Shown here: in pieces, positions 21,733 to 38,251 of the stretch
Numbering within the stretch: position 1 is the first letter of the stretch
Layout of the letters: each line of letters begins with the position of its first letter
Source of the DNA: Candidatus Undinarchaeota archaeon
GTDB taxonomy: Archaea > SpSt-1190 > JASMDC01
Direction of reading: 5' to 3'
Length of the DNA: 50,474 bases
Assembly (NCBI GenBank): GCA_964519305.1
Contig: CAZFHY010000021.1
Coordinates: forward strand, 1 to 50,474
Translations under genes and position numbers: made by a program
Notes under the pieces: model-generated
What the model was told of the DNA's origin: nothing
Seen by the model: only the letters and a program-made list of their open reading frames with translations
Database searches by the model: none

Positions 21733-22518
21733 TCAGGCGAGCGCGAGGCCGATGAGCCCCGAATAGATTACTGCGTTGGCCGTCGCATGCATAATGACGG
21801 GCGGGACGATGGAGTCAGCGTCGTCAATTGCCATGGTGGCCACGAGACCATAAGCGAAGATACCGAGTATGGCCGGGAGGGAGAGCTGACGCTTCAGATG
21901 AACAATAGCAAATACACCCGATACCGCATAGGCCGCTATAATGGGGAACTCACGTCGGACCTTTGTGTACATCAGACCGCGGAATAGTAGCTCCTCCGTC
22001 AGAGGTGCGAGCACGATGGCCTGGAGCAGGCCCCAGAGCGGGGCGCTCCGGTGGTCGTCCATGATACCCTCGCCAGCACTTAGTAAATACGAGCCGAAAA
22101 GGAGGCCTCCGACGACCGCAAGTAAGATCGATGAGCCCGAGCGCGGCCACTTGATACGCAGCGCGCCAATATCGTCCCATGCTCTGCACGCAGCGAGGAT
22201 TAGACCGAGCTGGACAGCGTAGATAACCACGTACCTCGCACCATAGAGCCCGGAAAGCACGAGGGTGACCAGTGCGACGCCCGTCAGACCCTCCATGATG
22301 AAGAGGAGGGAGAACGACTCGTAGGTCTCGCTCACCGAAGGATTACGGTGGGCGAAGAAGTAGAGCATGGCGGCAGTGATGAGGTAAAGGTGGGTGATTG
22401 CGGAAAGGGCCAGTGCAGTGTGCACGCGCATGGAAAGGAGGTAGACCAGGATCGTGAATACCAATACCAGTACCAGCGCTTCGAGATCGCGCCAGGTCCA
22501 GGGACGCCCTTCCTCCAT
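21733..22518 (-). CDS. CPBP (CAAX/Abi) intramembrane metalloprotease
   Basis: [21 protein letters not shown]; multi-pass hydrophobic. Confidence 0.88.
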
Positions 22519-22606
22519 CTACGGGTACGGCACCGTGAACCTTTAAATTAGCTCACAACCCTGAACGGCCGTACCTATATAAACGATCTGTGCCTACTTA
22601 TCGCTC

Positions 22607-24706
22607 GTGAGAGGAGCACGATTCTTGGTCGTCCTGTGCACCATCGTCATCATGCTGGGATCGGCGAGGTACGGTGAGAACGACCTGCCTGTCGGCCCTC
22701 TCTCTGGTATGCTACCTTGCTCGTCGGAGGCCTGTGCCCGATGGGACTGCTCGGAAATCATGCTCCCTCCGATAGGGAGCGGAAAGGAGACGTGCGATGT
22801 GTGGAATTGCACTGATGTCAGGGGTGGCCAGTGCTCGCAGTGGAACTGCAACGCCACCGATCCTGTGATGGCCGACCAGAGCTGCGACGAGAACACATGC
22901 ATCGCATGGGACCGGGGGTTGTGCATATCCTGGGACTGTGGTTCGATCGACATCCCGGCGGGTAACGATCGTGAGACATGCACAAGGTATGCGTGCACGG
23001 ACACCGCAAAGGAGGTGTGCGGCGCATGGGACTGCACGGAGAACGAAATCCCCCCGCTAGTGAGCGGACGGGAGGGGTGTAATTCGTTCGTATGCCGTGC
23101 ATCGGCCAAGGGCGTGTGCACGGATTGGGAGTGCATGGACGTCCACATGAGCTTCGAGAGCTGCGCGACCTGGGAGTGCGCGGCCTGGGGTGATGGTCTG
23201 TGCGAGATATGGAACTGCACATCGCAGGACTTCCCCGGGAAGAGCGGGTACGACACATGCTCGGGATGGACCTGCGCGACATGGGAGGCCGTCCAGAGCG
23301 GTAGCGACTGCGGGCCATGCACCTCAAACGACCAATGCAGGACCGGATGCTGCATCGACGGGGCCTGCTACGAGGTCGCCGAGGACCCCGACTCCGATGA
23401 GACGAGCTGCACCTGTCAGGGACTCCACTATGAGGGAGGCCAGTGCTGTGGGGACGATCCCGCGGAAGCGTGGTGCGGGACCACGGGGTACTGCGCGGAC
23501 GGGGTCTGGGCCTCGGAAGCTGACGAGCATTCCTGCACGACATGCCAGGGTGGTACGTGGACCGAGGAGCGATGCTGCGGGCCGGACGATGGCTGGTGCG
23601 GGGCCGCTGGCCGGTGCGAGGCGGGCTCATGGACCGAGGACGCCTGCGGCGAATGTCAGGCATGCAGCGGTGGAGCATGTACGTTCGACTGCAGTGGTTG
23701 TACGGAGGCCAATGCGACCCAGAAAGCGTGCGAGTGCCTCAAGGGGAGCTGGCATGACGAGCGATGCTGCTGGGCCGAAGGCAATGACAGTTGGAACGGC
23801 ACAGAAGGCGGGTGCGTAAACGGTACGTGGAAGACCGAGGCCGAGCTGTCGCCGACGCCCGAGCCCACACCCGAGCCGACACCCGAACCGACGCCCGAAC
23901 CGACTCCGGAGCCTACAACTGAGCCCACTCCCGAACCCAGTTCGACAGGATTAGTGATCCCTGGGCTTGGCGTCCCTCTCGATGATAAGATGGTACTCGC
24001 AGGGGCAGCGGGGCTTATCCTGCTCGTGGGTTTTCTCGTGATCTTCATGCGGCGTAGGGGCCCACCGCCCGAGGATACGTTCTTCCCTGAAGATGCGTTC
24101 GTCGACACAAAGAACGCATTCCGCGAAGAGGCCCCACCTATCGCCATCACGCCGCCCTCGCTCACACCAAAACCATCTCCCAAGGACCTCCGGAGCGCCG
24201 TGGAGGCTTCCAAGAGCAGCGCAGATGACCAGATATTCGCCGTTCCATCAGGTGGCGTTGCGGCCCCTCCGGCAGGAGCTCCAACGGTTCAGCAGGCGGA
24301 AGCGCCCTCCTATCAGGCGCCTGCTCCTGCCCAAGCACCACAACCAACAACTCCGGTCGCACCTCCCGTAACAGCTCCAGAACCCGCTCAGGCACCAGTG
24401 CCGCCCGCGCAAGCTCCTGCTCCCCAGGCACCTCCCGCGTACCAGCCACCTCAGAGCGCATACCAGTACCCCCAACAGCAACAACCGCAACAACAGCAAT
24501 GGGCTCAGGCACCAGGCTGGGGGCAGGCGGATCAGTACTATCGTCAGCAGCAGTTCTCCTACACCCGCAGGACCGCACAGGACTTCATCCCGTCCGGCCC
24601 CGCACCGACAGACGTCGTGGCCACGACCGTCCCCTGCCCGCACTGCGGCCAACAGATGCATGCAAGTCTGGCAGTATGCCCTCACTGTAACAATCCGAGG
24701 ATGTAG
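22607..24706 (+). CDS. Cys/Trp-repeat single-pass surface protein with Pro/Gln-rich tail and C-terminal zinc ribbon
   Basis: Signal-like N-terminus; six CxxW[DNE]C repeats; CC-rich domain; TPEP linker; TM helix followed by RRR; CPHCG...CPHC. Confidence 0.85.
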   Translation: MRGARFLVVLCTIVIMLGSARYGENDLPVGPLSGMLPCSSEACARWDCSEIMLPPIGSGKETCDVWNCTDVRGGQCSQWNCNATDPVMADQSCDENTCIAWDRGLCISWDCGSIDIPAGNDRETCTRYACTDTAKEVCGAWDCTENEIPPLVSGREGCNSFVCRASAKGVCTDWECMDVHMSFESCATWECAAWGDGLCEIWNCTSQDFPGKSGYDTCSGWTCATWEAVQSGSDCGPCTSNDQCRTGCCIDGACYEVAEDPDSDETSCTCQGLHYEGGQCCGDDPAEAWCGTTGYCADGVWASEADEHSCTTCQGGTWTEERCCGPDDGWCGAAGRCEAGSWTEDACGECQACSGGACTFDCSGCTEANATQKACECLKGSWHDERCCWAEGNDSWNGTEGGCVNGTWKTEAELSPTPEPTPEPTPEPTPEPTPEPTTEPTPEPSSTGLVIPGLGVPLDDKMVLAGAAGLILLVGFLVIFMRRRGPPPEDTFFPEDAFVDTKNAFREEAPPIAITPPSLTPKPSPKDLRSAVEASKSSADDQIFAVPSGGVAAPPAGAPTVQQAEAPSYQAPAPAQAPQPTTPVAPPVTAPEPAQAPVPPAQAPAPQAPPAYQPPQSAYQYPQQQQPQQQQWAQAPGWGQADQYYRQQQFSYTRRTAQDFIPSGPAPTDVVATTVPCPHCGQQMHASLAVCPHCNNPRM
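23851..23940 (+). repeat. 12-bp coding repeat (PTPE)n stalk linker
   Basis: SPTPEPTPEPTPEPTPEPTPEPTTEPTPEP. Confidence 0.8.
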
Positions 24707-24710
24707 CAGC

Positions 24711-26675
24711 TCAGGTACGTGGCCGCACCGGAAGCTCACCACGCAGTTCCCTGAGACGGTCCCGCAACTCGATTGCCTGTTCGAAGTCGAGTTCTTCGGC
24801 GGCCTTGCGCATCTTGGCCTCCAACTCCGCCTCGCGCTCGTGATCAGCTCTTCCAAGATCGGAAGGTCGGGTGCGACGCCGACGCTTCCGTCGCTCGTCA
24901 CCCTCCCCTAGCCCCTCTGCTACGGCCTTGACCACCGTTGAGGGGGTGATGCCATGCTCATGGTTGAACTCTGTCTGAAGGTCACGGCGACGCTCGGTCT
25001 CTCGAATGGCCTTGTCCATGGCCTCCGTGACCCTATCTGCGTACATGATGACACGGCTCTCGGCATTACGGGACGCGCGACCTATTGTCTGGATGAGCGC
25101 CGTATCCGTACGCAGGTAGCCCGCCTTGTCCGCGTCGAGGATCGCTACTAACCCGACCTCGGGGAGGTCAAGTCCTTCGCGTAGTAGATTGATACCTACG
25201 AGAACGTCGAACGTACCGAGCCTGAGATCGCGGATAATCTCAGTGCGTTCGAGCGTGTCCACTTCGGCGTGGATGTAACGCACACGGTGTCCGGCATCTG
25301 AGAGGAAGGATGTGAGGTCCTCGGCCATGCGTTTGGTGAGCGTGGTGACGAGTGTTCGGTGGCCTGCAGCAGTTGTGCGCCGGATATCCTCCATGAGGTC
25401 ATCGACCTGACCTTCGACCGGACGGACAACGACGAGGGGATCCACCAGTCCCGTAGGCCGGATGATCTGTTCTACGACCTGTCCGCTACCACTCAGTTCG
25501 AAGGCCGCAGGGGTGGCCGAAACGAAGAGCACCTTGCTCGTCCTCTCCATGAACTCCTCAAAGGAGAGCGGCCGGTTGTCGTAGGCCGACGGAAGACGGA
25601 ACCCGTGGTCGATTAGGTTCTTCTTCCGTGATTGATCGCCCCGCACCATTCCTCGCAACTGAGGAAGGGTCACGTGCGACTCGTCCACTATCGTTAGGAA
25701 CCCTTCGGGGAAGTAGTCGACCATGGTGTATGGCGGCTCACCTGATGAGCGACCGTCGAAATGTCTAGAGTAGTTCTCGATACCGGTGCAATAGCCCATC
25801 TCTTCAAGCATCTCTAGGTCGTACTTCGTTCTTGTCTTGAGGCGATGCGTTTCCAGAGGTCCTAGCTGGGGGAGATGTGCGTCGAGCTCCGTGCGGATGC
25901 TCGCGATAGCACGTGCGAGCGAGCTATCGTCTATAGCAAAGGGTTTGGCCGGGAAGATGGTGATGGCGTCGAGGTCACCGCACCGGGCTCCGGTCACAGG
26001 GTGCAGCCGGCTGATACGCTCCACGTCATCTCCGAAGAGCTCTACACGGATCACCTCATCGGCATAGGGTGGGAACACGTCGATGACATCGCCACGGGCC
26101 CGGAATGTCCCGGGACCCAGGTCCATGTCATTGCGCTCGTACTGAACATGGACGAGGGAGGCCAAGAGCTTACTACGTGGTAGCTGCTCACTCTTCCTTA
26201 CGACAACGCTCTGCCTTCGGAACTCATCGGGTGAGCCGAAGCCGAAGATGCACGATACGGTCGCCACGATGACCACGTTGGACCCGGACATAAGGTGAGT
26301 TGCAGCCTGTAGCCGGAGCCGCTCGATCTGTGGATTCACATCGGACTCCTTCTCGATATAGGTATCCGTCTTGGGCAGATAGCTCTCGGGTCGATAGTAA
26401 TCGTAGTACGAGACGAAATAACCGACCCGGTCATTGGGGAAGAACGTGCGGAACTCGCCATACAGCTGCGCGGCGAGCGTCTTATTGTGGGAGATGACCA
26501 ATGTCGGTACGTTCAAACGTTTGATGACATTGGCCATGGTGAATGTCTTTCCCGATCCTGTAACGCCGAGTAGCGTCTGGTGCTTGTAGTGAGAGAAACC
26601 TTCCACCAGCTTGTCGATCGCTTTAGGTTGGTCCCCGGCGGGTGGGAAGGATGAGGTCAGATCGAAGGATGCCAT
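24711..26675 (-). CDS. uvrB: excinuclease ABC subunit B
   Basis: GDQPKAI, GVTGSGKT, HNKTLAAQLY, FVSYYDYYRPE, DESHVT, GINLLREGLDLPEV, C-terminal UVR domain. Confidence 0.97.
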   Translation of the reverse strand: MASFDLTSSFPPAGDQPKAIDKLVEGFSHYKHQTLLGVTGSGKTFTMANVIKRLNVPTLVISHNKTLAAQLYGEFRTFFPNDRVGYFVSYYDYYRPESYLPKTDTYIEKESDVNPQIERLRLQAATHLMSGSNVVIVATVSCIFGFGSPDEFRRQSVVVRKSEQLPRSKLLASLVHVQYERNDMDLGPGTFRARGDVIDVFPPYADEVIRVELFGDDVERISRLHPVTGARCGDLDAITIFPAKPFAIDDSSLARAIASIRTELDAHLPQLGPLETHRLKTRTKYDLEMLEEMGYCTGIENYSRHFDGRSSGEPPYTMVDYFPEGFLTIVDESHVTLPQLRGMVRGDQSRKKNLIDHGFRLPSAYDNRPLSFEEFMERTSKVLFVSATPAAFELSGSGQVVEQIIRPTGLVDPLVVVRPVEGQVDDLMEDIRRTTAAGHRTLVTTLTKRMAEDLTSFLSDAGHRVRYIHAEVDTLERTEIIRDLRLGTFDVLVGINLLREGLDLPEVGLVAILDADKAGYLRTDTALIQTIGRASRNAESRVIMYADRVTEAMDKAIRETERRRDLQTEFNHEHGITPSTVVKAVAEGLGEGDERRKRRRRTRPSDLGRADHEREAELEAKMRKAAEELDFEQAIELRDRLRELRGELPVRPRT

Positions 26676-26777: not shown

Positions 26778-26797
26778 ACGATACATTTATGTATCGT
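26778..26797. promoter_or_regulatory. palindrome ACGATACAT-TT-ATGTATCGT overlapping the TATA-like box of the wHTH regulator gene
   Basis: Perfect 9-bp arms with a 2-nt spacer, about 20 bp upstream of ATG 26817. Confidence 0.55.
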
Positions 26798-26816
26798 TCC
26801 TGACAAGACCGGTTCA

Positions 26817-27806
26817 ATGCGATTGCGGATGGCCGTGCTCCTGTTCGCGCTACTCTTGCTCATGGGGTCCGCCGACGTCTATGTACGGAGCCTTTCCGTA
26901 GAATATGATCTTTCAGATGACGGTGTTGCATCCGAGATACTCACTTACACCCTCACGAATATCGACGATGTGCCGTTGCCTGACGTCTTTACACGCATAC
27001 CTGCCAAGGCCTTCGACGTTTCAGTGGAAGGTGGTGGTGGTGCTGTCGGGCTCACAATGAACAGGACCTCTGATAAGGTGCTTGTTGTGTCCTTTAATCC
27101 GGCCCTTCCGCCGAATGCCACGATTTCCTTTTCTGCATCGTTCAAGGTGATGGGTCTCATTGAGAGCTACAACTCATCTTCCCTTTTCTCAGGCCGCCTA
27201 TCACTTCCCCGGGACCTTAATGAGCTCAATGTCCGTCTGCGCTTACCTGAAGGGCACTTTCTCCTGGTCCGGACGGATGAACTCGATGAGTCGGAGCCGG
27301 TCATGGTCCCTCAGGCGCTCGTTTCCACTGACGGCCGACATCTCATCCTCGAGTGGTCGAGGAGCAACCTCATCGAACGGAGCTTTGATATTTTTGTAAA
27401 ATTCCAGGCACCGCAGCGAATCGAGACTGTGGTTGAGCGGCCTGTGCCCACTGTCATGGTCGTCGAGCGTGAAACACCCACTCTCGACATGGGGCAAGGG
27501 ATCTTGTTCCTCGCTGTCGGTTTGGTCCTGGGACTCCTTCTCGCAGTTTTCGCATGGGGATGGTTGCCATTAATGGCTTCCGGGGGGGAGGATGTGTCGG
27601 TATACCCCAAGGCCGAACTGAAGTGGGATGAGCGTGAGGTCGTCGACGCATTGCTGGACGCAGATGGGGAACTCAATCAGAACATACTGGTCCTCAAGGT
27701 GTCATTCTCAAAAGCTAAGCTGAGCAAGCTGCTGAACCATATGGAGGCACGGGGCATCCTGGTAAAAGAAAGCATGGGTCGTGTGAACAAGATCAAGCTC
27801 ACATAG
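26817..27806 (+). CDS. membrane-anchored winged-helix regulator (COG2512-like)
   Basis: Signal peptide, beta-rich extracellular domain, one TM helix (GILFLAVGLVLGLLLAVFAWGW), C-terminal DEREVVDAL...NQNIL...FSKAKLSKLLNHMEARGILVKESMGRVNKIKL. Confidence 0.82.
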   Translation: MRLRMAVLLFALLLLMGSADVYVRSLSVEYDLSDDGVASEILTYTLTNIDDVPLPDVFTRIPAKAFDVSVEGGGGAVGLTMNRTSDKVLVVSFNPALPPNATISFSASFKVMGLIESYNSSSLFSGRLSLPRDLNELNVRLRLPEGHFLLVRTDELDESEPVMVPQALVSTDGRHLILEWSRSNLIERSFDIFVKFQAPQRIETVVERPVPTVMVVERETPTLDMGQGILFLAVGLVLGLLLAVFAWGWLPLMASGGEDVSVYPKAELKWDEREVVDALLDADGELNQNILVLKVSFSKAKLSKLLNHMEARGILVKESMGRVNKIKLT

Positions 27807-28168
27807 TAGGTGTTCGAAAGTTACGTTTTCGTGGTACTGGGTGCTCGTGAGTCCGTTATTCAACGTTGAAATAATTCAAAGAACGGATTTCCTAACGTTA
27901 ATGGCCGTCTGCAGGGAAATACTCATCTAAAAACGTGTGGGGGATTAGATACTGAGTTAATAACGACTCTAGTGCTATAAACGGGGCGATAACTGTCTAT
28001 ACTTGTGGTATATTATAGGATATAATTCAAAAAACACAGGGAAACGTTCTTTCCTAACAACGACCGTAATTATTCTGCCTGCGATAATCGCAATCCTGAA
28101 CGTTTCAATCGTTCACACAAAACGTTTTAAATCGTTCACACCTTATTTCGGGGACGGACAGTGGTACT
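27807..28168. promoter_or_regulatory. AT-rich control region with clustered AACGTT sites and BRE/TATA of the surface-protein cluster
   Basis: AACGTT at 27862, 27894, 28043, 28099 and 28121; TTCAACGTTGAA palindrome 27859-27870; TGAACG-N7-CGTTCA 28097-28115; AATCGTTCACAC direct repeats at 28107 and 28130; TTTTAAA at 28125. Confidence 0.65.
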
Positions 28169-31100
28169 ATGATGAAGGCAAAGGCACTTTTGTTATCCCT
28201 GGTCTTGTTGCTGTCTCTTGGACTAGCAGAGGACCTGGGTGGAGAATCAGCCAATGGGGCGCTTCCGGGCGTCATCATTGCGACGGACGCGAACTACCCC
28301 GATGCAATCGTATCGGGTGCAGCAGCAGAGTACATGGGTTTGAGCGTACTCCTTACAGAAATGGAAGCCCTTTCTGATGATATTAAGGCCTTCCTTGACG
28401 AGGAGAAGCCCGACGAGGTCATCCTCATTGGTGGTGAGGCCGTAATCTCGGCAGCCATCGAGGAAGGACTTACGGCGAGCGGCTTCGATGTCACCCGTCT
28501 GTGGGGTGCGACCCGGTACGGTACGTCCGCCGAGATCGCTAAGTACTTTTTCAGCGAGGGCGTCGAGGAGGCCGTTCTGGTCAGCGACGTTCTTGGTAAC
28601 AACGAGGGGAACGAGGACGAGCTCCTGGCAGTGGCCAAGTCACTGGCCGCCAAGGACGCCCTGCCTGTTCTGCTCACGGGCAACGATGTGCTCGCCGCCG
28701 AGGTTGCTTCGGCCCTAACCGATCTGGGTGTGGGCAAGGTCTACCTTATCGGTAAGACATTCGATGCTAATGTCACTGAGGAGCTCAAGACACTTAATAT
28801 AGAGGTCGAGCTTATCTCGGGAGAGGACACCGAGGAAGTAACCAAGAAGGTCGAGGAGAAGGTCGTCGACGAGCTTATCAAAGAGGGCGTCACCCGCCTG
28901 CTCGTGGTCGCACCCGGTGTCGACTTCAAGAACGTCATCGCGATGCCGGCCATGCCTGAGAAGGCTGCGGCCAAGATCATCAAGGACGAGAGCGAGATCC
29001 CGGACCTTGTGGCCTTCATCAACGAGAAGGGCATCAAGGAGGTCAAGGTCGTCGGTAAGCCCGAGCTTGTGAGCAAGATCGCGGCCCAGCTCCTCCTTAC
29101 AGAGGGTGTTCGAGTGGACGCCATGTCCGCCAAGGACATTGGCCGCAAGCTCGTTGAGAGCGCTAAGGCCATGAAGAATGAGTGGGCCGAGAAGCGCGAA
29201 AAGTTCAAGGAGAAGGCCGCTGAGCGCCTTGCCAAGAACAAGGACAAGCTCGATGCCAAGCTCGTAGAGGCAATTGAGGAGGCCGAAGCCTTCCTTCTTG
29301 ACCTTGAGGCCCAGCTCGAGGAGCTCGAGGCCACGGCCGAGACCGAGGACGAGATCGCCGCCGTAGAGGCAGCGCTCAAGAAGTACGAGGCCGCCGAAGC
29401 CATCATCGCCAAGGCTAAGGAAGCCCAGGCAGCTGGTAAGCTCGACCTCGCGCTCAAGACCCTGCGCAAGGCCCACAACGAGGCCAAGAACGTGCGCTGG
29501 GGCGCAATCAAGAAGTTCTACGCTGGTGACGAGGACACCGCCCGGCAGAAGATCGACGAGCTCTTGGACGAGGAGAGGGCCGGTATGGGCCGGTTCGCAA
29601 ACGGCATCATGAAAGAGTTCGAACACTTCAAGGGCTTCATGGACGAAGCGCAGTCCGCCGGCTTCATCGCCGACGAGTGCGCAGCGCTAATCGCCGATGC
29701 TGAGGGCATGGCAGACGACGTGCTAAGCGAGTTCGACGGGGTCGACTACCGCCGCGCCCGCATCATCGCCTCCCGGACGAAGCAGAAGCTAGCGAAGTGC
29801 ATGACCGCCACTCGCGTGAACGCCAAGAAGGACGCTGCCAAGGGCAAGCTCTTTGACGCTGCATTCGAGGCTAAGAATCTCGCAGAGGGCTTCGAGGACC
29901 GGATGGGTATGTGCGAGGACCGATGCGACGAGGAGTTCGACAACTGTATGGACTTCATCGGTGGGTGCGAGGACCGCTGCTCCGAGAAGGCCGCAGAGTG
30001 CGAAGCCGGTGCCGAGGACATCCTTGCCCGCTGTGCCGAGGTCGGAGACCAGGACCTGAGCGCTGTCGTCGACGAGTGTCTCTCAAGCTGTGACTTCATC
30101 CTCGAAGATACTGAGGACGCCGAGGCATCCGACGTCGAGTATGGCCTGTGCCTCGACGAGTGTGGTGCCATCCAGGAGGAGGCCGAATCATCCATCGAGA
30201 ACTGCGAGGCAGAGGCCGAGATGTTCTCGGAAGAGTGCGAAGCAAAGATCGATGACTGCAACGACTTCTGTCAGCAGTCCAGCGAATCCAAGTGCCAGGA
30301 GGGTGTGGAACAGTGCGTCCCCAAGTGTCTGGGCAAGCGGTTCTTCCGCCCTGGTCTCACCGATAACATCTGCGCTGCCAAGTGCAAGTTCGCCCGCGAC
30401 AGGAAGGGCTGCCTCGAAAAGTGCGAGGACGAGTCCCTTGAGGAGGGTCAGCTGCACGAGAACAAGCGCAAGTGCGAGGGCGAGGCCCACAAGGTTGCCA
30501 ACAAGTGCTTCGACGGTTGTGAGCGCAAGTGCGCGAACGCCAAGGACGTGTGCATCACACGCGAGCGCTGCAAGGTGACGCGCGAGGGTGATGAGATCAA
30601 GCGCGATTGCGTGAAGGTCGAGGAGTGCAAGCCTGAGCTCTGCTTCGCAAGGTGCGAGGAGGGCTGCGAGAAGGCGGCCAAGGCCTACACCTACAAGTGC
30701 GCTGCCAAGCGCCCGAAGACCATTGTCAAGCTTGGCGGTTGTGCTGACGAGTGTTCCAAGTTCAAGGGTAAGCCCTTCCAGCACATGCAGTGCATGGAGA
30801 AGTGCCGAATCAAGGCCGTGGCCAAGCATATGGTCCCGCCCCAGCACATGAAGAAGTGTCAGGAGAAGTGCAAGGGCGAGAAGAACAAGGCCAAGTGTAT
30901 GACCAAGTGCATCGCACCGCCTGGTATCGGTAAGCGCGCCGAGCGCCCCGGAAAGCCTGGTGACAGGTTCGACATGAAGAGGGCAAAAGCCGAGTGTGCC
31001 ATGGACTGTGCTGACAAGCTCAACATAGACCTCGGTACGGCTGCCAGGAAGTTCTCCGGTCAGGCCGGTAAGTACGGTGGGGAGCAGCCTCCCAAGGAGA

Positions 31101-32605
31101 TGCCTCCAAAGGAAGAACCTCCCAAGGAGCAGCCCGCCACCGGTCTGCCCCAGATCCCTCCCGAATGTCTGAGACCTATGCACCCTGCGTTCAAGACGCC
31201 CAAGTGCGTGGAGATCAGGCAGAAGGCCAAGGCGCTAGCTGCCAACCGCCCCGGTATGGGCGGTCCTGAGGACGAGCCGACTCTCTACGGTGCAGTCAAG
31301 GAGGCTCGCCAGGGTGCGAATGAGTTCGGTCAGGGCATGGACCTCGCCAAGGCCGCCGTCAAGATGGCCGGTGAGATGCGTGCTGGTGCTGCCAAGATGA
31401 ACATCTGCATCCAGAAGTGCGTTGAGCGGAAGCGCGACGCGTGGATGAAGGATCACAAGCCCGCCGAACCGGTCGAGCTAATCGAGGCTGAGCTCGAGAA
31501 GTGTCAGGCCGACGACGACTGTGGAAACCTCGAGTGCCCCATGGCCATCGGTATGGACACGCCCATGTGCCTTGATGGCGAGTGCGTGTGCAGCGGCTAC
31601 GGTGACGAGGACTTCCCTGAGGAAGAACTCATCTCCGAGGAGGACTGCGACAACCTCTGCGGGGACATCGACGATCCCGAGGAGCAGTACATCTGCATCT
31701 CTGCATGCAAGGGCGAGGACATCGACTTCGTCGAACTACCTGACGATGTCGAGGACATCTTCGACGACGCTGAGGATCTAATCGACGAGGAGCTCGAACA
31801 GGAGTTCGCCGATGAGGCTCAAGACCTTCTGGACGAGGCCGGGGACTACTTCGACGAGTCCGGTGAGGTCTTTGACGAGTTCGGTGAACTGGGATGTGTT
31901 GTAGATGAGGACTGTCTCGAGGGCGAGCTGTGCTTCGACGGCATCTGCGAGTACGTTGGTGGGGAGGACCTTGGTGACGAGTACGTCGACGAGGGGGAAG
32001 ATCCCGAGTGCCAGGTCGACGATGACTGCGGCGAGGACTTCTACTGCGAAGTGGAGTTCTGCATCCCTCTGACTGACGAGGGCATCGGCGACGAGGACCT
32101 CAGCGACTACGGTTACGACGACTACGAGACACCGGACATGACTGACGACGATTCAGGTGTTATCGATGTACCCGACGAGGACTTCGACGATGGTGCGGAC
32201 GTAGATACGGACAACGCAGATGTGATCATCGACGACGAGGGTGTTGACGTAGACACCAGCGGTGCTGATGTGAGCACTGGCGACGATGGTGTTGACGTAG
32301 ACACCGACTACGCTGATGTGAGCACCGGCGACGATGGTGTTGACGTAGACACCGACGACGTGGACGTGACCACCAGCGACGATGGTGTTGACGTAGACAC
32401 CGACGACTACGACACCGGCGACTACGACACCGGCGACTACGACACCGGCGACTACGACACCGGCGACTACGACACTGGCGACTATGATACCGGTGGTAGC
32501 GACTACGACACTGGCGACTATGACACCGGTGGTAGCGACTACGACACTGGCGACTATGATACCGGTGGTAGTGACTACGACACCGGTGGAATGGGCGACT
32601 TCTAA
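28169..32605 (+). CDS. giant secreted protein: cell-wall-binding-repeat-2-like N-terminus, coiled coil, Cys-rich regions, Asp-rich repeat tail
   Basis: Signal peptide; NYPDAIVS...VLLT, VILIGGEAVIS and RLWGATRYGTS (CWB2 signatures); many CxxxC; C-terminal GVDVDT and DYDTG repeats; strong codon bias. Confidence 0.88.
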   Translation: MMKAKALLLSLVLLLSLGLAEDLGGESANGALPGVIIATDANYPDAIVSGAAAEYMGLSVLLTEMEALSDDIKAFLDEEKPDEVILIGGEAVISAAIEEGLTASGFDVTRLWGATRYGTSAEIAKYFFSEGVEEAVLVSDVLGNNEGNEDELLAVAKSLAAKDALPVLLTGNDVLAAEVASALTDLGVGKVYLIGKTFDANVTEELKTLNIEVELISGEDTEEVTKKVEEKVVDELIKEGVTRLLVVAPGVDFKNVIAMPAMPEKAAAKIIKDESEIPDLVAFINEKGIKEVKVVGKPELVSKIAAQLLLTEGVRVDAMSAKDIGRKLVESAKAMKNEWAEKREKFKEKAAERLAKNKDKLDAKLVEAIEEAEAFLLDLEAQLEELEATAETEDEIAAVEAALKKYEAAEAIIAKAKEAQAAGKLDLALKTLRKAHNEAKNVRWGAIKKFYAGDEDTARQKIDELLDEERAGMGRFANGIMKEFEHFKGFMDEAQSAGFIADECAALIADAEGMADDVLSEFDGVDYRRARIIASRTKQKLAKCMTATRVNAKKDAAKGKLFDAAFEAKNLAEGFEDRMGMCEDRCDEEFDNCMDFIGGCEDRCSEKAAECEAGAEDILARCAEVGDQDLSAVVDECLSSCDFILEDTEDAEASDVEYGLCLDECGAIQEEAESSIENCEAEAEMFSEECEAKIDDCNDFCQQSSESKCQEGVEQCVPKCLGKRFFRPGLTDNICAAKCKFARDRKGCLEKCEDESLEEGQLHENKRKCEGEAHKVANKCFDGCERKCANAKDVCITRERCKVTREGDEIKRDCVKVEECKPELCFARCEEGCEKAAKAYTYKCAAKRPKTIVKLGGCADECSKFKGKPFQHMQCMEKCRIKAVAKHMVPPQHMKKCQEKCKGEKNKAKCMTKCIAPPGIGKRAERPGKPGDRFDMKRAKAECAMDCADKLNIDLGTAARKFSGQAGKYGGEQPPKEMPPKEEPPKEQPATGLPQIPPECLRPMHPAFKTPKCVEIRQKAKALAANRPGMGGPEDEPTLYGAVKEARQGANEFGQGMDLAKAAVKMAGEMRAGAAKMNICIQKCVERKRDAWMKDHKPAEPVELIEAELEKCQADDDCGNLECPMAIGMDTPMCLDGECVCSGYGDEDFPEEELISEEDCDNLCGDIDDPEEQYICISACKGEDIDFVELPDDVEDIFDDAEDLIDEELEQEFADEAQDLLDEAGDYFDESGEVFDEFGELGCVVDEDCLEGELCFDGICEYVGGEDLGDEYVDEGEDPECQVDDDCGEDFYCEVEFCIPLTDEGIGDEDLSDYGYDDYETPDMTDDDSGVIDVPDEDFDDGADVDTDNADVIIDDEGVDVDTSGADVSTGDDGVDVDTDYADVSTGDDGVDVDTDDVDVTTSDDGVDVDTDDYDTGDYDTGDYDTGDYDTGDYDTGDYDTGGSDYDTGDYDTGGSDYDTGDYDTGGSDYDTGGMGDF
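32240..32401 (+). repeat. 48-bp-period coding repeat with invariant GGTGTTGACGTAGACACC, 4 copies
   Basis: Identical 18-mers at 32240, 32288, 32336 and 32384, encoding GVDVDT. Confidence 0.9.
32405..32590 (+). repeat. 15-bp/36-bp coding tandem repeat (DYDTG)n and (DYDTGGS DYDTG)n
   Basis: GACTACGACACCGGC tandem units followed by GGTAGC-containing variants. Confidence 0.9.
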
Positions 32606-32630
32606 AGACGTCGACCAGTTGAATAAGTTA

Positions 32631-32669
32631 GACGTCGCGGGCTTCGGCCCGCGGCGTCGCCTTTTTATT
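32631..32669 (+). terminator. hairpin with C(UUCG)G tetraloop plus U-tract
   Basis: GACGTCGCGGGC-TTCG-GCCCGCGGCGTC (12-bp stem, one G-U pair), then GCCTTTTTATT. Confidence 0.75.
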
Positions 32670-32691
32670 CTTATATTATTCTCATCGTAGC

Positions 32692-32970
32692 ATGAAGAAT
32701 GAGAGATTTCTTGCCCTGCTGATCATCGGCCTTGTATTGGCCGCTGGTTGCACGGGCGGTGAGGATGTTGAAGTGGACACGGGCGACGTCAAGGTCGACG
32801 TCAGCGGTGATGATGTCAATGTGGACACTGGTGATGTCAAGGTCGACGTCAGCGGCGATGATGTCAATGTGGACACTGGTGACGTCAGTGTGGAGACCGA
32901 TGGAGACGGTGCGAAGGTGGACACAGGCGATTACGAAGTGGACACGGAAGACCTGGACCTCCCCGTATAA
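32692..32970 (+). CDS. small acidic lipoprotein made of 16-aa VDTGD repeats
   Basis: MKNERFLALLIIGLVLAAG-C lipobox; VDTGDVKVDVSGDDVN with 48-bp periodicity. Confidence 0.85.
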   Translation: MKNERFLALLIIGLVLAAGCTGGEDVEVDTGDVKVDVSGDDVNVDTGDVKVDVSGDDVNVDTGDVSVETDGDGAKVDTGDYEVDTEDLDLPV

Positions 32971-32987
32971 CTTGACTGGACGTGAAT

Positions 32988-33030
32988 CGTGGCGCCGCCG
33001 CATCTCCGCAGCGTCACCTTTTTATTTATT
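32988..33030 (+). terminator. imperfect hairpin plus U-tract
   Basis: GTGGCGCCGCCG...CGCAGCGTCAC followed by CTTTTTATTTATT. Confidence 0.5.
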
Positions 33031-33048
33031 ACCAGATAAGTCGGTCCT

Positions 33049-35148
33049 ATGAAAATGAACAAGCTACTTGCAGTGCTAATGCTCGCACTGCTCCTCGGAG
33101 CTGTACCTGTCGGATTGGCCCAAGAGGGTGCGGACGCAGCAGTCGAGACCGTGACCGATGACTCGTCCGCGGATACCGCGGGTGACACTTTAAGCGATGC
33201 TGTCGTGGACGGCGAGCTCGACCGAGCTGCTGTAAAGGAGGCGATCACGAAAGCGTACGTCGCCAAGAAGCTCACTCGCATCCATGTACGCAGGGTACTG
33301 GCGCGCATGTACGCCCGTCGTGTGCTCACGCGAGCGGACCTCAGGTGGTTGCTGGTCAACTCCTACAAGGAAGGCAAGCTCACCCGCGACGATGTGCGCG
33401 AGCTAGTTTTCAACATGTACAAGGAGAAGCACCTGCGCCGCGCTGACGTGCGTTGGCTCATCATCAATGCCTACAAGAACGACGAGCTCACCCGCGATGA
33501 CGTTCGCGAGATGCTCGGTGCAGCGCACAAGGCCGGAGTGCTCACGAAGGAGGACCTCAAGGAGCTCGTGGTCGCGGCCTACAAGGCCGGCGAGCTCAAG
33601 CGATCGGACCTACTTGAACTGACGGGCGCCATGTACAAGAACGGCCATCTTACACGTGCGGACCTCAAATGGCTCATCATCAATGGCTACAAGGCCGGTG
33701 AACTGCGACGAAGCGACCTTCGCTTCATACTCGCAAAAGGACACAAGCTCGGCCACCTCAAGCGGGAGGACCTGCGTTGGATCCTGGTACAGGCACACAA
33801 GGCCAAGGAGTTGGAGAGCGAGGACGTCGCCGGGCTCCTGAGAGAGGCCGTGGCACAGGGTGAGCTAACCGCCGACGACGCGAGCGGTATACTTACCGAA
33901 GCCTATGACGCCGGCGAGCTCACTCAAGAGGAGGTCGCTGTCGAGGAGGTCAACGATGTGAAGGTCACCGCAATCGAGGAGGAGGACGAGGTCTTCACAA
34001 ATGACGCATCTGTCGTCATTTTCCTGGCAGTCAAGGCCAAGCTCCTCGAGATGGACCTCCGCGCCCAAGCGCTCATCTCCTTCGCCAAGGAGAAGGGCAA
34101 GGACGTGACCACGCTCATCGACAAGCGTGCTGCTTTCATCGACGCCGTCCAGGAGCTTGAGGACGCTGCTCAGGATGGCGACAAGGAGGCAATAAAACTG
34201 AAGGGTGCGGCCGTTGGGAAGGCCGTCATCGAGTTCCAGAAGGAAGGTTTGAAGGTACTCCCGCTCCTGCAGCGAAAGGGTATCATCCCCTACACCAAAG
34301 CACGTCTCGAAGAGAACAAGGGTAGGCTGGACGAGCTCAAGAAGATGGTGGCGCTCCGCGTGGCCGCCCGTCGCCTTGCTGCATTCGACCGCCACGTCAG
34401 GCTCGCCGAACGGCTCGTGGCACGTGCGAAAGCAGAGGGGCTCGACACGTCCGCCGTGGATCCCAAGCTCGCTGAGGTCAAGGAGGCCCGGGCAGCGCTC
34501 ACTGAGGCGTTCAACAGCGGTGACAAGGCCGCTATCACCAAGGCGGCCCAAGACGTCAAGAAGAAGGGTGCTGAGCTAAAGCGCGTGTTCGAACGCGAGG
34601 CACGTAAGGCCATGGCAACCAAGTTCCTAGCACAGGCCGACATTGCCTCGGCCAAGGTGCACGGTTTCCTCGATGCTGCTGATGCTCGTGACCTGGACAC
34701 TGTCAAGGAGCGGGCCCGGCTAACCAAGATCGACGCTGATATCGAAGCAGCCCGTACCAACCTCGAGGCCGGTAAGTACGGCAAGGCGCTCGGGAACCTG
34801 CGCGCAGCGAACCGCAAGCTCCACGCGCTAAAGGCCGCCATGAAGCGCCGCACATTATTCGGCAAGGGCGGAGCTATCCGCGCCTTCGTGAAGAAGGTGG
34901 ACCGCCCGCTCGTAAGGCTCCATCGTGCCGCACTGGCCCTGGAGAAACGCGGCGTTGACATTTCCGCCGAGAAGGAGCAGGCCAAGCAGGTTAGGGAACT
35001 GCTGAAGAGTGCGGAAGAGAAGGCCAAGGCCGAGGACTTTGACGGCGCCCTCGACGATGCTGCAAAGGCCCGGGAGACGTTCAACGCCCTGAGGATCTCG
35101 CTGGTAGCCAAGGTCAAGGCGGCCAAGGCCGCAGAAGGGGGTGCCTGA
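33049..35148 (+). CDS. secreted protein with 13 x 18-aa helical repeats and basic coiled-coil C-terminal half
   Basis: Signal peptide ending GLA-Q; repeats such as GKLTRDDVRELVFNMYKE; Ala/Lys-rich helical C-terminus. Confidence 0.88.
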   Translation: MKMNKLLAVLMLALLLGAVPVGLAQEGADAAVETVTDDSSADTAGDTLSDAVVDGELDRAAVKEAITKAYVAKKLTRIHVRRVLARMYARRVLTRADLRWLLVNSYKEGKLTRDDVRELVFNMYKEKHLRRADVRWLIINAYKNDELTRDDVREMLGAAHKAGVLTKEDLKELVVAAYKAGELKRSDLLELTGAMYKNGHLTRADLKWLIINGYKAGELRRSDLRFILAKGHKLGHLKREDLRWILVQAHKAKELESEDVAGLLREAVAQGELTADDASGILTEAYDAGELTQEEVAVEEVNDVKVTAIEEEDEVFTNDASVVIFLAVKAKLLEMDLRAQALISFAKEKGKDVTTLIDKRAAFIDAVQELEDAAQDGDKEAIKLKGAAVGKAVIEFQKEGLKVLPLLQRKGIIPYTKARLEENKGRLDELKKMVALRVAARRLAAFDRHVRLAERLVARAKAEGLDTSAVDPKLAEVKEARAALTEAFNSGDKAAITKAAQDVKKKGAELKRVFEREARKAMATKFLAQADIASAKVHGFLDAADARDLDTVKERARLTKIDADIEAARTNLEAGKYGKALGNLRAANRKLHALKAAMKRRTLFGKGGAIRAFVKKVDRPLVRLHRAALALEKRGVDISAEKEQAKQVRELLKSAEEKAKAEDFDGALDDAAKARETFNALRISLVAKVKAAKAAEGGA
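33211..33912 (+). repeat. 13 tandem 54-bp (18-aa) degenerate coding repeats
   Basis: Gap-free 18-residue register from GELDRAAVKEAITKAYVA to GELTADDASGILTEAYDA. Confidence 0.85.
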
Positions 35149-35149
35149 G

Positions 35150-35524
35150 ATGGAACGGAGCACCGTGTACACCCTATTGGCATTGGGCCTGATCGTGTGC
35201 TTGGCGATGACCGCCGGGTGTGTTGGTCGCGGGAAGAGAGGGGGCGCCAAGCAGCCGCCAGCGGCCACCAAGGCACCGCCCGCTCCTGCAACGTCCGATG
35301 CACCTGCGGCAACGACGGCTCCGGCCGCTACCGAGACGCCCGCAGACATGCCCACGGAACCGGTCACTGAGGACGATCTGGACCTCACCGGTATCGATGA
35401 GCTTGACGTGGTAAGCGGTGACGACACGGACCTAGAGATCCCCGAGATCCCTGAGGATGACCTTGAGATCCCCGATATGGACTTCGGGGCCGAGGACAGC
35501 ATCGACGTAGGCAACCTCGAATAG
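35150..35524 (+). CDS. lipoprotein with Ala/Pro/Thr linker and acidic tail
   Basis: ATG 1 nt after the upstream stop; LIVCLAMTAG-C lipobox; DDTDLEIPEIPEDDLEIPDMDF. Confidence 0.8.
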   Translation: MERSTVYTLLALGLIVCLAMTAGCVGRGKRGGAKQPPAATKAPPAPATSDAPAATTAPAATETPADMPTEPVTEDDLDLTGIDELDVVSGDDTDLEIPEIPEDDLEIPDMDFGAEDSIDVGNLE

Positions 35525-35547
35525 AGCGACTAAGAGCTAGTAGGACA

Positions 35548-35591
35548 TCCGCCCGGACCACCCGGCCCGGGCGGACTTGTTCTTTCTTTCC
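35548..35591 (+). terminator. hairpin plus pyrimidine tract
   Basis: TCCGCCCGG (35548-35556) pairs with CCGGGCGGA (35567-35575), then CTTGTTCTTTCTTTC. Confidence 0.65.
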
Positions 35592-35659: not shown

Positions 35660-38251
35660 ATGAGCAGGTGGAGCGCGGTCCCAGCACGTATGACCGTGAT
35701 GGTATTCTACCTTGTCCTGATCCTCACGCTCGGTCAGAATCTAGGCGACCGGGCCTTCCCGACCTATCTGATCTCACAAGTGGACCGCTGCGCTCCAATG
35801 AACTGCGCCCGCTGGGACTGCACCGAGAACCGGATGTATCTTGAGGAGTTCTTTGGCAGGGACCAGGAGACCTGTGACACCTGGGAGTGCGTCACATGGA
35901 ACGAAGAGCTCTGTGACAAGTGGAACTGCACGAGCCTGGACCTTCCCAAGGCCCGCTATCACGAGACCTGCGATGTCTACTCTTGCACATCCTGGAAAGG
36001 GGGCTCGTGCGAGAAATGGGATTGTACCAAGGTCGATATGCCTGCCGGGAACGACAAGGAGACCTGCGATATCTTTGAATGTACCCTGTGGAACGAGGAC
36101 CAGTGCAGGTCCTGGGACTGCACCGACGGGGACATCCCCTCCAGCGACGACCTATCCTCGTGCGACACCATGAACTGCACATCGTGGTTCGACGACGTGT
36201 GCCGAATCTGGGACTGCACGGCAGGGGATATTCCGGCCTCCAATGACCGGGAGGTCTGCTACCGCTACCAGTGCGTTGCATGGCGAGGGCGGGCGTGCGC
36301 AGCTTGGGATTGTGTGGAGGACCCGTTCTTCGTGGGGATGACCCGTTCCGAGACGTGCTTCTCATGGGACTGCGCGAACTGGAACATCACCACCCTTCCC
36401 GAGGAGTGCGCGTGCAACAAGAACACCGATTGTGATTCGGGTTGCTGTGCTTGGAACGTCTGTGCTTCCGCAAGTGCTGATGGCGATGGTGACGAGCAGA
36501 CCTGCCTTTGCCGGAACGGCGCCTGGTACGAAGGGAAGTGCTGCGGCGATGACTTCCTCGAGTCCTGGTGCGGCCTGTCCGGACACTGCCAGGAAGGTAA
36601 TTGGATCGACAACGCAGAGTCCTTCTGCAAGACCTGTCGGGACGGGATCTGGCTCGATAGTGCCTGTTGTACCGCTGGAGAATCGTTCTGCTACGCTAGC
36701 GGCCGGTGCGAGGATGGTGCTGTGAAGCCTGTCTGTGAAGGATGCGCAAAATGTGCGGGTGGACGCTGCGAGGTCGTGTGCGACGGGACGACCTGTCCGC
36801 TGGGGAACGAGACCTGGTGCGAGCAATGCGCTAACGATGACGGTGACGCTGATGAGTTCGCTTGCACATGCATGAAGGGCGAGTGGCATGAGGGTCGCTG
36901 CTGTGGCGATGACTCTATCGACGAGTGGAGCGGTGAGAAAGGACGGTGCACGCGTGGACAGTGGCGGGAAGGCAAGCCTCGTGTCAACACCACAAAAGTG
37001 AAGGCCCTTGAGTCCGCCGAGTCGTGCGGGGCCCTCACGGGCCAGGAACTGAACGAGTGCCTCCTCAAGGTGGCGGACGAGCTCTCGCTCTGGGATCCCA
37101 TCGACGGCGCCACCGCCTGCGAGATGATCCTCGACGATGATGAGTTGCGATACTCGTGCTTCGAGATGGTGCTCGGGCGCACCGAAGGTGTTGACCGGAT
37201 ATCCGTTATGATCAGGCACCGTCCTATCCAAGTGCTCATCTGGCCGTTCCTGGTCCTTATCGTCGTCGCGCTCTGGGTGACGACTGTCTACAGTAAGAAA
37301 GGGAAGAAGAAGTTCGTCGTTTACGAGGGGACGACGCCAAAGGACCTCTCGGACACGCAGTTCGAGACCGAAGGACTGGCGGAAGCACTGGAGCACCTCT
37401 ACAATAACCTGAACATCCCTGACGTTCTAGAGTACGGTCAGAGCCGTCACATCGAACAGTACATAGTCACCGACTTCCTGAACAATGAAGAATCGGTAAT
37501 GGCGTTGAAGAAGGGGATGACTAAGGAGGAGTTCGACGAGGTGGTCACATCGCGCGTCTATCTCATGATGGGTAATGTCCACTTCTTGCTCGGGGACTAT
37601 CAGGCCGCCAGGAAGCGCTATGAGCGTGGTATAGTCATGGACAGGTCCGATGTGGCCCTCTGGAACAACATCGGGCTCGCTTTCCACCACATCGGTGACG
37701 AGGACAAGGCCGAGAAGGCGTTAAAGAAAGCGAAGGGGATATCACCTGAGAACAAGACGGTACTGCTCAACCTCGGGAAGCTCTACGGGACCAGGGCCTA
37801 CATACAGCGGGCGGGCGGTTCGTGGCCTGCACATACGGCCAAGATGCCCGAAGGTATGCGTGATTACAGGAGCATGTCCTGGGACTATGGTCGCTATTCC
37901 AAATCAGCGAACTGGGGCAGCCCACCCAAGTGGCGCGAGGAGTTCCTTGAGAAGGAGCAGACCTCGCTATACGACCGTCAGATCGAGCTCTACTCGAAGG
38001 TGTTGGAGAAGGAGCCCAATAACGTAGAGGCCATCGTGAACCTCGGTGTCGCCTTTCGTCACAAGGGCATGATCGACCAGGCCGTCTTTCACCTTGAAAG
38101 GGTCGTCGCGCTCCAGCCGAAGAACACGGTAGCGCTCTACGAACTCGCCCGGATCAGCGAGGAGCAGGGCGACACGCGAAGAATGGTCGAGTACTACCGC
38201 CGATGCCGGGATAACATCCATCTGGAACGCCCTCCGGAACAGGACAAGTAG
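35660..38251 (+). CDS. Cys/Trp-repeat single-pass protein with cytoplasmic TPR domain
   Basis: Six CxxW[DN]C repeats; CCGDD domain; TM helix followed by KKGKKK; TPRs (YLMMGNVHFLLGDYQAARKRYERG, LWNNIGLAF, AIVNLGVAF). Start may be 35690. Confidence 0.87.
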   Translation: MSRWSAVPARMTVMVFYLVLILTLGQNLGDRAFPTYLISQVDRCAPMNCARWDCTENRMYLEEFFGRDQETCDTWECVTWNEELCDKWNCTSLDLPKARYHETCDVYSCTSWKGGSCEKWDCTKVDMPAGNDKETCDIFECTLWNEDQCRSWDCTDGDIPSSDDLSSCDTMNCTSWFDDVCRIWDCTAGDIPASNDREVCYRYQCVAWRGRACAAWDCVEDPFFVGMTRSETCFSWDCANWNITTLPEECACNKNTDCDSGCCAWNVCASASADGDGDEQTCLCRNGAWYEGKCCGDDFLESWCGLSGHCQEGNWIDNAESFCKTCRDGIWLDSACCTAGESFCYASGRCEDGAVKPVCEGCAKCAGGRCEVVCDGTTCPLGNETWCEQCANDDGDADEFACTCMKGEWHEGRCCGDDSIDEWSGEKGRCTRGQWREGKPRVNTTKVKALESAESCGALTGQELNECLLKVADELSLWDPIDGATACEMILDDDELRYSCFEMVLGRTEGVDRISVMIRHRPIQVLIWPFLVLIVVALWVTTVYSKKGKKKFVVYEGTTPKDLSDTQFETEGLAEALEHLYNNLNIPDVLEYGQSRHIEQYIVTDFLNNEESVMALKKGMTKEEFDEVVTSRVYLMMGNVHFLLGDYQAARKRYERGIVMDRSDVALWNNIGLAFHHIGDEDKAEKALKKAKGISPENKTVLLNLGKLYGTRAYIQRAGGSWPAHTAKMPEGMRDYRSMSWDYGRYSKSANWGSPPKWREEFLEKEQTSLYDRQIELYSKVLEKEPNNVEAIVNLGVAFRHKGMIDQAVFHLERVVALQPKNTVALYELARISEEQGDTRRMVEYYRRCRDNIHLERPPEQDK

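Follow-up and report, generated by a model that had tools for sequence, protein, structure and literature searches.

Do the five genes between positions 26,778 and 35,591 of contig CAZFHY010000021.1 (assembly GCA_964519305.1, Candidatus Undinarchaeota archaeon) encode one integrated cell-surface system, or are they surface-protein genes joined by a narrower regulatory link? The contig was analysed over its full 50,474 nt, referred to below as the window. An earlier note had described five co-oriented open reading frames, here named g1 to g5 (Table 1), and all five are present where, and as long as, it had them. It took them for a one-component sensor in control of a surface module. We favour a more limited picture, to which we give about an even chance: the locus would be a lineage-specific gene island for the envelope of a DPANN archaeon, organized in separate units, in which g1 is a membrane-tethered regulator whose likeliest target is the promoter of the adjacent gene g2. 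From the sensor proposal we retain that g1 is a membrane protein with a winged helix-turn-helix (wHTH), that the repeats at the g2 promoter are conserved, and that three distant loci again join a g1-like gene to a gene for a CWB2 protein; control of the whole set we do not retain. In our view the locus is a useful lead, namely a surface-protein island with a probable local regulator of g2, and not a single integrated system.

The argument starts with g1. A hydropathy scan places hydrophobic segments at residues 1-19 and 222-240 of the protein, and its sole Pfam match is a C-terminal wHTH of the DUF7343 family (residues 271-328; E 1.3e-12; 47.8 bits against a cutoff of 27.6) that is present in all nine close and distant relatives compared. 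The AlphaFold2 (AF2) model based on nine relatives (mean pLDDT 72.7) consists of a signal-type helix, a 13-strand beta-sandwich (22-197), a transmembrane (TM) helix (226-254), and the wHTH (270-328). Hydropathy, Pfam and model together bear out the earlier description of this protein as a signal peptide, an extracellular domain, a TM helix and a wHTH. By its sequence, g1 is an ordinary member of a very large pan-archaeal family: a profile search of 1.84 billion cluster representatives returned 4994 relatives at E<=1e-3, 1060 at E<=1e-10, and 80 at E<=1e-30, and the best 150 family representatives are mostly 290-340 aa long, their alignments spanning profile positions of roughly 12 to 335. Look-alikes of similar size and Pfam content in the Atlas belong to the Thor-, Heimdall-, Aenigmat- and Parvarchaeota, the Nitrososphaerota, and the Methanobacteriota. 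We found no experimental characterisation of the family in the literature (nothing under DUF7343, and nothing relevant under COG2512).

The cytoplasmic domain is, as judged from sequence profiles, of a DNA-binding type and closest to the Lrs14/MarR regulators. Searched against the PDB sequences with a 65-member family profile, it matches the Lrs14-like protein 6cmv best (2.2e-5), with HosA at 0.0036; the NCBIfam models for Lrs14, Sta1 and ArsR/SmtB match 57, 52 and 45 of the 65 members, respectively. Lrs14 proteins are small and soluble. Unlike them, g1 carries an ectodomain and a TM helix, and it scores far under the Lrs14 family cutoff.

The DNA between g1 and g2 is the second line of evidence. 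This spacer (27807-28168) is 362 bp long and has a GC content of 40%, versus about 58% around it. It contains five of the window's eight copies of the motif AACGTT, for a local expectation of 0.12-0.41, and five copies were reached in 0 and 1 of 20000 shuffles. Two 16-nt direct repeats lie 23 nt apart at 28103-28118 and 28126-28141, and their 12-mer core has no other mismatch-free copy in the window. In the closest related locus (L001, see below), the 48 nt that hold both repeats (28099-28146) are identical at 46 positions (96%), versus 63% identity for 27807-27900 and 50% for 27901-28029. An AT-rich box within this conserved segment is situated about 40 nt upstream of the g2 start codon. Since archaeal TATA boxes keep a usual spacing from the gene start, the segment probably is the core promoter of g2, with one repeat overlapping the box and the other just upstream of it. 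What had been called a 360-bp operator array comes down to this compact, conserved repeat promoter; the distal part, only 50-63% identical, does not belong to it. A further candidate site, a palindrome, precedes g1 itself. It is unique in the window, was matched in none of 100 shuffles, and is fully conserved in L001, where the region is 92% identical; we regard it as a candidate TATA box and operator of g1. Position 26778, at which the cluster had been taken to begin, falls in this promoter and palindrome region and is not a gene start.

The presumed target, g2, encodes a large secreted protein that starts with a signal peptide and CWB2 repeats (residues ~30-200, with a probable third copy to ~330), and continues with a helical region, a body with 68 cysteines, a PPKE linker, and a polyacidic tail. 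The CWB2 assignment rests on a Pfam match in two stretches (4e-16; 59.8 bits against a cutoff of 24.9); tested singly, residues 28-125 and 126-235 match at E 1e-11 and 0.0069. Among the PDB entries, Cwp6 of Clostridioides difficile (5j72) is matched at 1.4e-12, and the high-molecular-weight (HMW) chains of SlpA at about 4e-7. No Pfam family scores above its cutoff in the body and tail segments (E<=1). The tail bears a net charge of -146 over residues 1101-1478 and is built from 16-aa and 5-aa repeats. Hydropathy places the only hydrophobic segment of g2 at the N-terminus, as it does in g3, g4 and g5, so that the earlier statement that the large proteins g2 and g4 have no TM anchor beyond their signal peptides stands.

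C. difficile surface proteins carry three tandem CWB2 copies, and those of the Cwp and SlpA type bind an anionic glycopolymer. The likeness of g2 to Cwp6 and SlpA HMW is that its N-terminal part matches CWB2 and that it is a secreted protein without a membrane anchor. It differs in its host, an archaeon without a peptidoglycan wall, in having two sequence-supported repeats, and in placing CWB2 at the N-terminus ahead of a helical stalk, a Cys-rich body and a polyacidic tail that have no counterpart in the C. difficile proteins. Twenty homologs of g2 were found at E<=1e-3: four are close and full-length (78-100% identity), one is a paralog of 38% identity, one covers 24% of the protein, and 14 share the CWB2 part only. 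The module of signal peptide, CWB2 and helical region is common to 20 other archaeal loci, and shorter proteins from Nanohaloarchaeota, Woesearchaeota, Aenigmatarchaeota, and further DPANN loci begin with it as well. That 21 archaeal loci have it suggests that DPANN cells, which lack a wall, share a means of keeping proteins on their surface. Literature searches combining CWB2 and archaea gave no work on archaeal CWB2 proteins among the matches listed; for DPANN and cell wall binding repeats nothing was found, the accessible portions of S-layer preprints making no mention of CWB2 in DPANN, while their supplements may list some.

The exposed end of g2 is variable. Among relatives that are 78-87% identical, the PPKE linker (31081-31134) and the C-terminal tail (32185-32589) vary strongly: one relative (P0002) has more PPKE copies, and in two others (P0003 and P0004) Cys-rich repeats replace the Asp/Tyr/Thr/Gly repeat tail. 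Such variability among close relatives suggests a fast, repeat-driven evolution of this end of the protein.

Taken together, these features outline the following mechanism. The beta-sandwich of g1 would sense an envelope or extracellular cue outside the cell; DNA binding would fall to the cytoplasmic winged helix of Lrs14/MarR-like type, which would act on the g2 promoter through the two conserved 16-nt repeats that flank or overlap the TATA-like box; g1 may also autoregulate through the palindrome at its own promoter. For the g2 protein, the analogy with C. difficile Cwp and SlpA suggests attachment to the surface through the N-terminal CWB2 repeats, and its Cys-rich body and very acidic tail would point outward. 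The g3 product would be a small, probably lipid-anchored protein that displays the acidic repeat of the g2 tail, and g4 and g5 a translationally coupled pair made of a basic secreted protein with helical repeats and an acidic, probably lipid-anchored peptide. Several of these steps we infer, namely binding of g1 to the repeats, its sensing role, anchoring at the surface, lipidation, and protein-protein contact. A complex prediction for the g1 ectodomain (residues 20-205, 9-row alignment) and the CWB2 region of g2 (28-340, 19-row alignment) gave 0.00 and 0.01 against a mark of 0.32; run without controls, these values speak neither for nor against binding.

The third line of evidence comes from related loci. 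A scan of genome contigs seeded with an alignment of g2 relatives yielded 33 loci, of which 21 are archaeal and 12 bacterial. The closest, L001, is from a metagenome-assembled genome (MAG) labelled Candidatus Undinarchaeales archaeon; its genes g0, uvrB, g1 and g2 stand in the same order as in the window, and their products are 79%, 92%, 82% and 87% identical, respectively. A full-length g1-family gene occurs in four of the 21 archaeal loci (L001, L004, L005 and L022) and in none of the 12 bacterial ones. In L004, L005 and L022 it lies on the same strand as the CWB2 gene and two genes away from it, matching the family profile at E 1e-94 to 1e-95. This recurrence is suggestive and lends support to a link between g1 and g2, short of proof.

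The three latter loci (L004, 253-3455; L005, 9327-16264; L022, 8855-15376) have in common a CWB2 gene, then a gene for an acidic protein of about 145 aa without a Pfam match, then the g1-like gene. A dCTP-deaminase-like gene on the opposite strand is part of this arrangement; L004 begins too near the CWB2 gene to show one. Past the g1-like gene, L005 and L022 have three genes on the opposite strand, of which two encode small membrane proteins and the third a large protein with multiple TM segments. The multi-TM protein of L005 matches processive-type (chitin-synthase-like) glycosyltransferases of family 2 (GT2), and could make the polymer that CWB2 binds. Seven loci of nanohaloarchaeal type (L003, L005, L009, L017, L019, L020 and L022) have a divergent gene for a protein of about 170 aa ahead of the CWB2 gene; the N-termini of these proteins are like that of the L005 protein matching the dCTP-deaminase Pfam family, a stable synteny unlike the arrangement in the window. 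In L020 (10001-13510), two signal-peptide genes stand in tandem on the same strand, the second with a CWB2-type N-terminus, and the scan match spans both.

Several points weigh against the proposed link and against parts of the mechanism. The three distant loci share one arrangement and so count as one lineage, which leaves two independent occurrences, and in all three the CWB2 gene comes first and the g1-like gene downstream of it, the reverse of the order in the window. With more than 1000 clusters in the g1 family, chance adjacency to CWB2 genes is not negligible. With L001 and L002 set aside, 19 archaeal CWB2 loci remain; 15 of them, several with short flanks, show no g1-family gene, and L014 has only a weak match to the wHTH (E 0.0014). 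Two of the five AACGTT copies, those at 27862 and 27894, are lost in L001, which retains the copy at 28043. The L001 contig ends inside g2, so that the comparison with this relative stops short of g3 to g6. Residues 236-340 of g2 have no Pfam match on their own, only two repeats thus being supported by Pfam, and a third copy is compatible with the length and with the alignment to DPANN homologs. Finally, the lipoboxes of g3 and g5 depart from the strict consensus at position -3.

Some of these points would suit a plain coincidence, in which unrelated, fast-evolving surface genes have gathered in a variable region and g1 regulates itself or distant genes, with no particular connection to g2-g5. 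The relatives of g2 are few (four close ones and the 38% paralog among the 20), with differing tails and PPKE linkers; uvrB sits within the island between g0 and g1; the g4 family has a different phyletic spread; and most CWB2 loci lack a g1-like gene. Two observations speak against it, namely the conservation of the promoter-proximal repeats amid a diverged spacer, and the adjacency of g1-family and CWB2 genes found again in a second, distant lineage. We consider coincidence unlikely on balance.

Any regulation of g2 by g1 need not extend to the genes that follow. From the intergenic DNA we infer that the island consists of several separately promoted units and is not one operon; there would be four or five of them (g1 / g2 / g3 / g4-g5 / g6). 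The hairpin between g2 and g3, with its stem at 32631-32658, is the sole intergenic plus-strand terminator-like site in our scan, which counted nine such sites in the window against 8.7 in shuffles and hence no excess. A T-run and an AT-rich box precede each of g3 and g4. Structures after g3 and g5 were noticed by eye only, the hairpin after g5 being weaker than that after g2. Of the hairpins and U-tracts formerly placed between units, the scan thus picks up the one after g2. The g5 ATG stands 1 nt past the g4 stop codon behind a G-rich, Shine-Dalgarno-like stretch, which indicates that g4 and g5 are co-translated.

This layout bears directly on the integrated system that had been envisaged, in which g1 controls the whole set through the spacer, each lipoprotein docks the large protein encoded before it, and the four genes form a conserved scaffold. 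The common orientation and adjacency of all genes speak for it, as do the translational coupling of g4 and g5, the opposite character of their products (pI 9.36 for g4 versus 4.05 for g5), and the repeats common to g3 and the g2 tail, which could permit homotypic association. The idea of one operator array serving both pairs does not survive the distribution of the repeats: the 12-mer is found at the g2 promoter only, AACGTT is absent upstream of g3, g4 and g6, and g3 and g4 have AT-rich boxes of their own, preceded in the case of g3 by the hairpin and its T-run. Nor does the pairing of a large secreted protein with a lipoprotein appear to be a conserved layout. In L002, a locus from the same MAG as L001, the gene next after a g2 paralog of 38% identity is glutamine-amidotransferase-like and lies on the other strand, with no lipoprotein gene downstream of the paralog, and in 18 other archaeal loci viewed in full (L012 is partly visible) the CWB2 gene has no gene for a small acidic lipobox protein after it. 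The g4 family moreover occurs in archaea outside this lineage. All in all, we judge the integrated system to be decidedly unlikely.

The small proteins themselves fit the earlier description in part. Both g3 and g5 are acidic (pI 4.05 each). The archaeal lipobox is given as [L/V/I] at -3, [A/S/T/V/I] at -2, [G/A/S] at -1 and C at +1 in the available excerpt of PMC12462473, which also describes lipoproteins as prevalent, and AliA as present, in DPANN. The motifs of g3 (A-A-G-C) and g5 (T-A-G-C) fit at -2, -1 and +1. The mature part of g3 aligns with the g2 tail with a Smith-Waterman score of 138, against 78 +/- 9.6 for shuffled sequences (none of 1000 reaching it), and repeats with a 48-nt period are found in both; composition-adjusted BLASTP between g3 and g2 is not significant (best E 0.18). 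As the repeats match beyond composition, g3 looks like a copy of the tail repeat and not obviously like a complementary partner. Two further comparisons are not significant, that of g5 with the g2 tail, whose score is reached by 54 of 1000 shuffles, and that of g3 with g5 (416 of 1000).

The AF2 model of g4 (pLDDT 80.7) shows 14 single-helix repeats of 18 aa (residues 38-287), followed by a C-terminal domain of long helices. Compared with the PDB by Foldseek, it matches generic helical repeats only (best E 3.3e-4, to a designed protein with TM-score 0.13; maximum TM-score 0.20); phmmer against the PDB sequences gave nothing below E 0.28, and the Atlas nothing at >=0.9. The SHOCT-like family DUF1707 of Pfam is matched at 28.3 bits, just over the cutoff of 27.6, with no single stretch passing alone. 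Of 47 homologs, two are close and the others 29-37% identical, the named ones mostly from Candidatus Methanoperedens; they are signal-peptide proteins of about 655 aa. Their pI ranges from 5.2 to 9.5, and the charge pairing of g4 with g5 is thus not a trait of the family.

A different role for g1 is raised by its ectodomain. When the g1 model is compared with the PDB by Foldseek, ribophorin I/Ost1 chains of the eukaryotic oligosaccharyltransferase (OST) rank first (8b6l_O at 1.3e-8), followed by 8pn9_E, 6s7o_E and 6s7t_E and, lower down, by 6c26_1, 7oci_A and 6ezn_A; over these chains E runs from 1.3e-8 to 2.3e-6 and the query-normalised TM-score from 0.41 to 0.44. Ost1 has the same order of signal peptide, luminal or extracellular beta-sandwich, TM helix and cytosolic domain as g1. 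One could accordingly see in g1 chiefly an Ost1-like subunit for envelope biogenesis or anchoring, which holds or receives the anchorless CWB2 protein or aids its secretion or modification, its wHTH binding nucleic acid or protein at the membrane. Beyond the structural ranking, this would agree with the lack of a membrane anchor in g2, with the repeated vicinity of g1-like and CWB2 genes, and with the membrane-protein genes near by in L005, L022 and (by eye) L004, including the GT2 of L005.

The comparison weakens on closer inspection. The N-terminal domains of M1 aminopeptidases match the g1 model nearly as well (TM-score ~0.37), which marks the sandwich as a generic fold. Ribophorin_I of Pfam matches none of nine g1-family members even at E<=10, and OST chains are absent from the 24 PDB sequence matches (E<=10) of the 65-member profile. 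Ost1 has two sandwiches and a cytosolic four-helix bundle; the g1 model has one sandwich and, in place of the bundle, the wHTH. Such a cytosolic helical bundle is described for human and Lokiarchaeal OST1, and OST1 is reported from eukaryotes, TACK and Asgard archaea only, in the available excerpt of PMC11417166. Literature searches linking ribophorin I, archaea and winged helices found nothing. There is one N-x-S/T sequon in the 1478 aa of g2 and none in g4, which argues against a role in glycosylating these neighbours. With seven sequons in g0 and six in g6, the large secreted proteins g2 and g4 seem to avoid N-glycosylation sites. We treat the resemblance as a lead at the level of the predicted fold and not as family membership, and hold a primarily Ost1-like function to be very improbable. 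If the fold were homologous, it would bear on the origin of the OST accessory subunits.

A bolder variant, which we would call a long shot, joins the two roles. The g1 family would then be a pan-archaeal class of signal-transducing membrane proteins with an ectodomain truly related to the luminal domain of Ost1/ribophorin I and fused to a DNA-binding wHTH. In DPANN archaea it would be dedicated to the CWB2 coat. It might signal the condition of the coat to the promoter of the coat gene; alternatively, it might tether that gene to the membrane and so bring transcription, translation and secretion of the giant protein together at a single site. If this were true, it would amount to a new envelope-to-gene circuit and to an evolutionary tie with a eukaryotic OST accessory subunit outside TACK and Asgard archaea.

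For the reading that we prefer, with g1 as a local regulator of g2, the nearest precedents are ArnR and ArnR1 of Sulfolobus acidocaldarius. The excerpt of PMC6396743 available presents them as membrane-bound regulators of archaellum and pilus genes that act through two boxes upstream of the target core promoter, with an N-terminal HTH, cytoplasmic HAMP/sensor domains, and two C-terminal TM helices. They share with g1, in its proposed role, that they are membrane-anchored archaeal HTH factors for surface-structure genes with paired boxes. The order of parts is reversed in g1, whose cleavable-type signal peptide is followed by an extracytoplasmic beta-sandwich, a single TM helix and, at the C-terminus, the wHTH; no sequence relationship with ArnR or ArnR1 was seen. 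Should g1 indeed control g2, this would be the first functional assignment for a membrane wHTH family of more than 1000 clusters across the Archaea, and membrane-bound one-component regulators of archaea would, after ArnR, be known in a second architecture.

As for the surface module, the Sulfolobales build their S-layer from two genes, SlaA and SlaB, that encode a large outer protein and a membrane-anchoring partner. The present locus is alike in having a large outer protein encoded beside a possible membrane-anchoring partner. It differs in that there is no homology and that the stalk-like helical region lies within the large protein itself. DPANN archaea depend on cell-to-cell contact with their hosts and, to our knowledge, almost nothing is known of their surface proteins and of how these are regulated.

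Table 1. Genes and DNA features of the island, numbered from the first nucleotide of the window
Feature	Position	Strand	Description
g0	22607..24706	+	699-aa type-I membrane protein; Cys-rich ectodomain (59 Cys), TM 460-478, Pro/Gln-rich tail
Palindrome	26779..26796		Perfect, 18 nt, AT-rich centre; 21 nt upstream of g1 ATG
g1	26817..27806	+	329 aa; signal peptide, beta-sandwich ectodomain, TM helix, cytoplasmic DUF7343/Lrs14-like winged helix
Distal spacer	27807..28098		AT-rich; AACGTT at 27862, 27894, 28043; mostly unconserved
Probable g2 core promoter, conserved	28099..28146	+	Two 16-nt repeats, two AACGTT, TATA-like stretch overlapping the second repeat
g2	28169..32605	+	1478-aa secreted surface protein; CWB2 repeats, helical region, Cys-rich body, PPKE linker, polyacidic tail
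Hairpin	32631..32668	+	12-bp GC-rich stem (32631-32658), then T5 run, between g2 and g3
g3	32692..32970	+	92-aa lipobox-like acidic protein built of 16-aa repeats
g4	33049..35148	+	699-aa secreted basic all-helical protein
g5	35150..35524	+	124 aa from ATG (127 aa from GTG 35141); lipobox-like, Pro/Ala/Thr linker, acidic tail
g6	35660..38251	+	863-aa type-I membrane protein; Cys-rich ectodomain, TM 520-538, cytoplasmic TPR repeats

Beyond the five genes first described, all of them on the plus strand, the cluster also includes g0 and g6. These are paralogs (35% identity over 432 aa; E 2e-77 by BLASTP), co-oriented with the rest, and as related surface genes they extend the neighbourhood on both sides. 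They bracket the cluster and share an ectodomain of about 430 aa in which short repeats with Cys and Trp recur many times (59 Cys in g0, 61 in g6) and Pfam finds no match (for g6, nothing above cutoff at E<=1). Their tails are different: that of g0 is Pro/Gln-rich with a C-terminal Cys-pair motif, and that of g6 consists of TPR repeats. Between uvrA and g0, on the minus strand (21733-22518), is a gene for a seven-TM intramembrane protease of the Rce1/CPBP type (Pfam 3.2e-17), which could act on a membrane protein encoded near by. Over 17085-26675, uvrC and uvrA are adjacent and the protease gene and g0 stand between them and uvrB, an order also seen in L001; uvrB, an unrelated repair gene, thereby lies inside the island, between g0 and g1.

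The window as a whole is archaeal DNA of about 58% GC. Among its genes are those for HdrABC, which includes a fused MvhD-like domain, for the repair proteins UvrA, UvrB and UvrC, and for several aminotransferases; scans for tRNAs and Rfam families gave no match anywhere in it. In the Hdr module (6565-10467, minus strand), HdrA is fused to an MvhD/FlpD-like domain and adjoins HdrB- and HdrC-like genes, a notable energy metabolism for a genome whose nearest relative carries a DPANN label. Towards the end of the window, two neighbouring minus-strand genes (48293-48856 and 48904-49443) encode small multi-TM proteins with like N-termini and no Pfam match, and this pair appears to be a tandem duplication.

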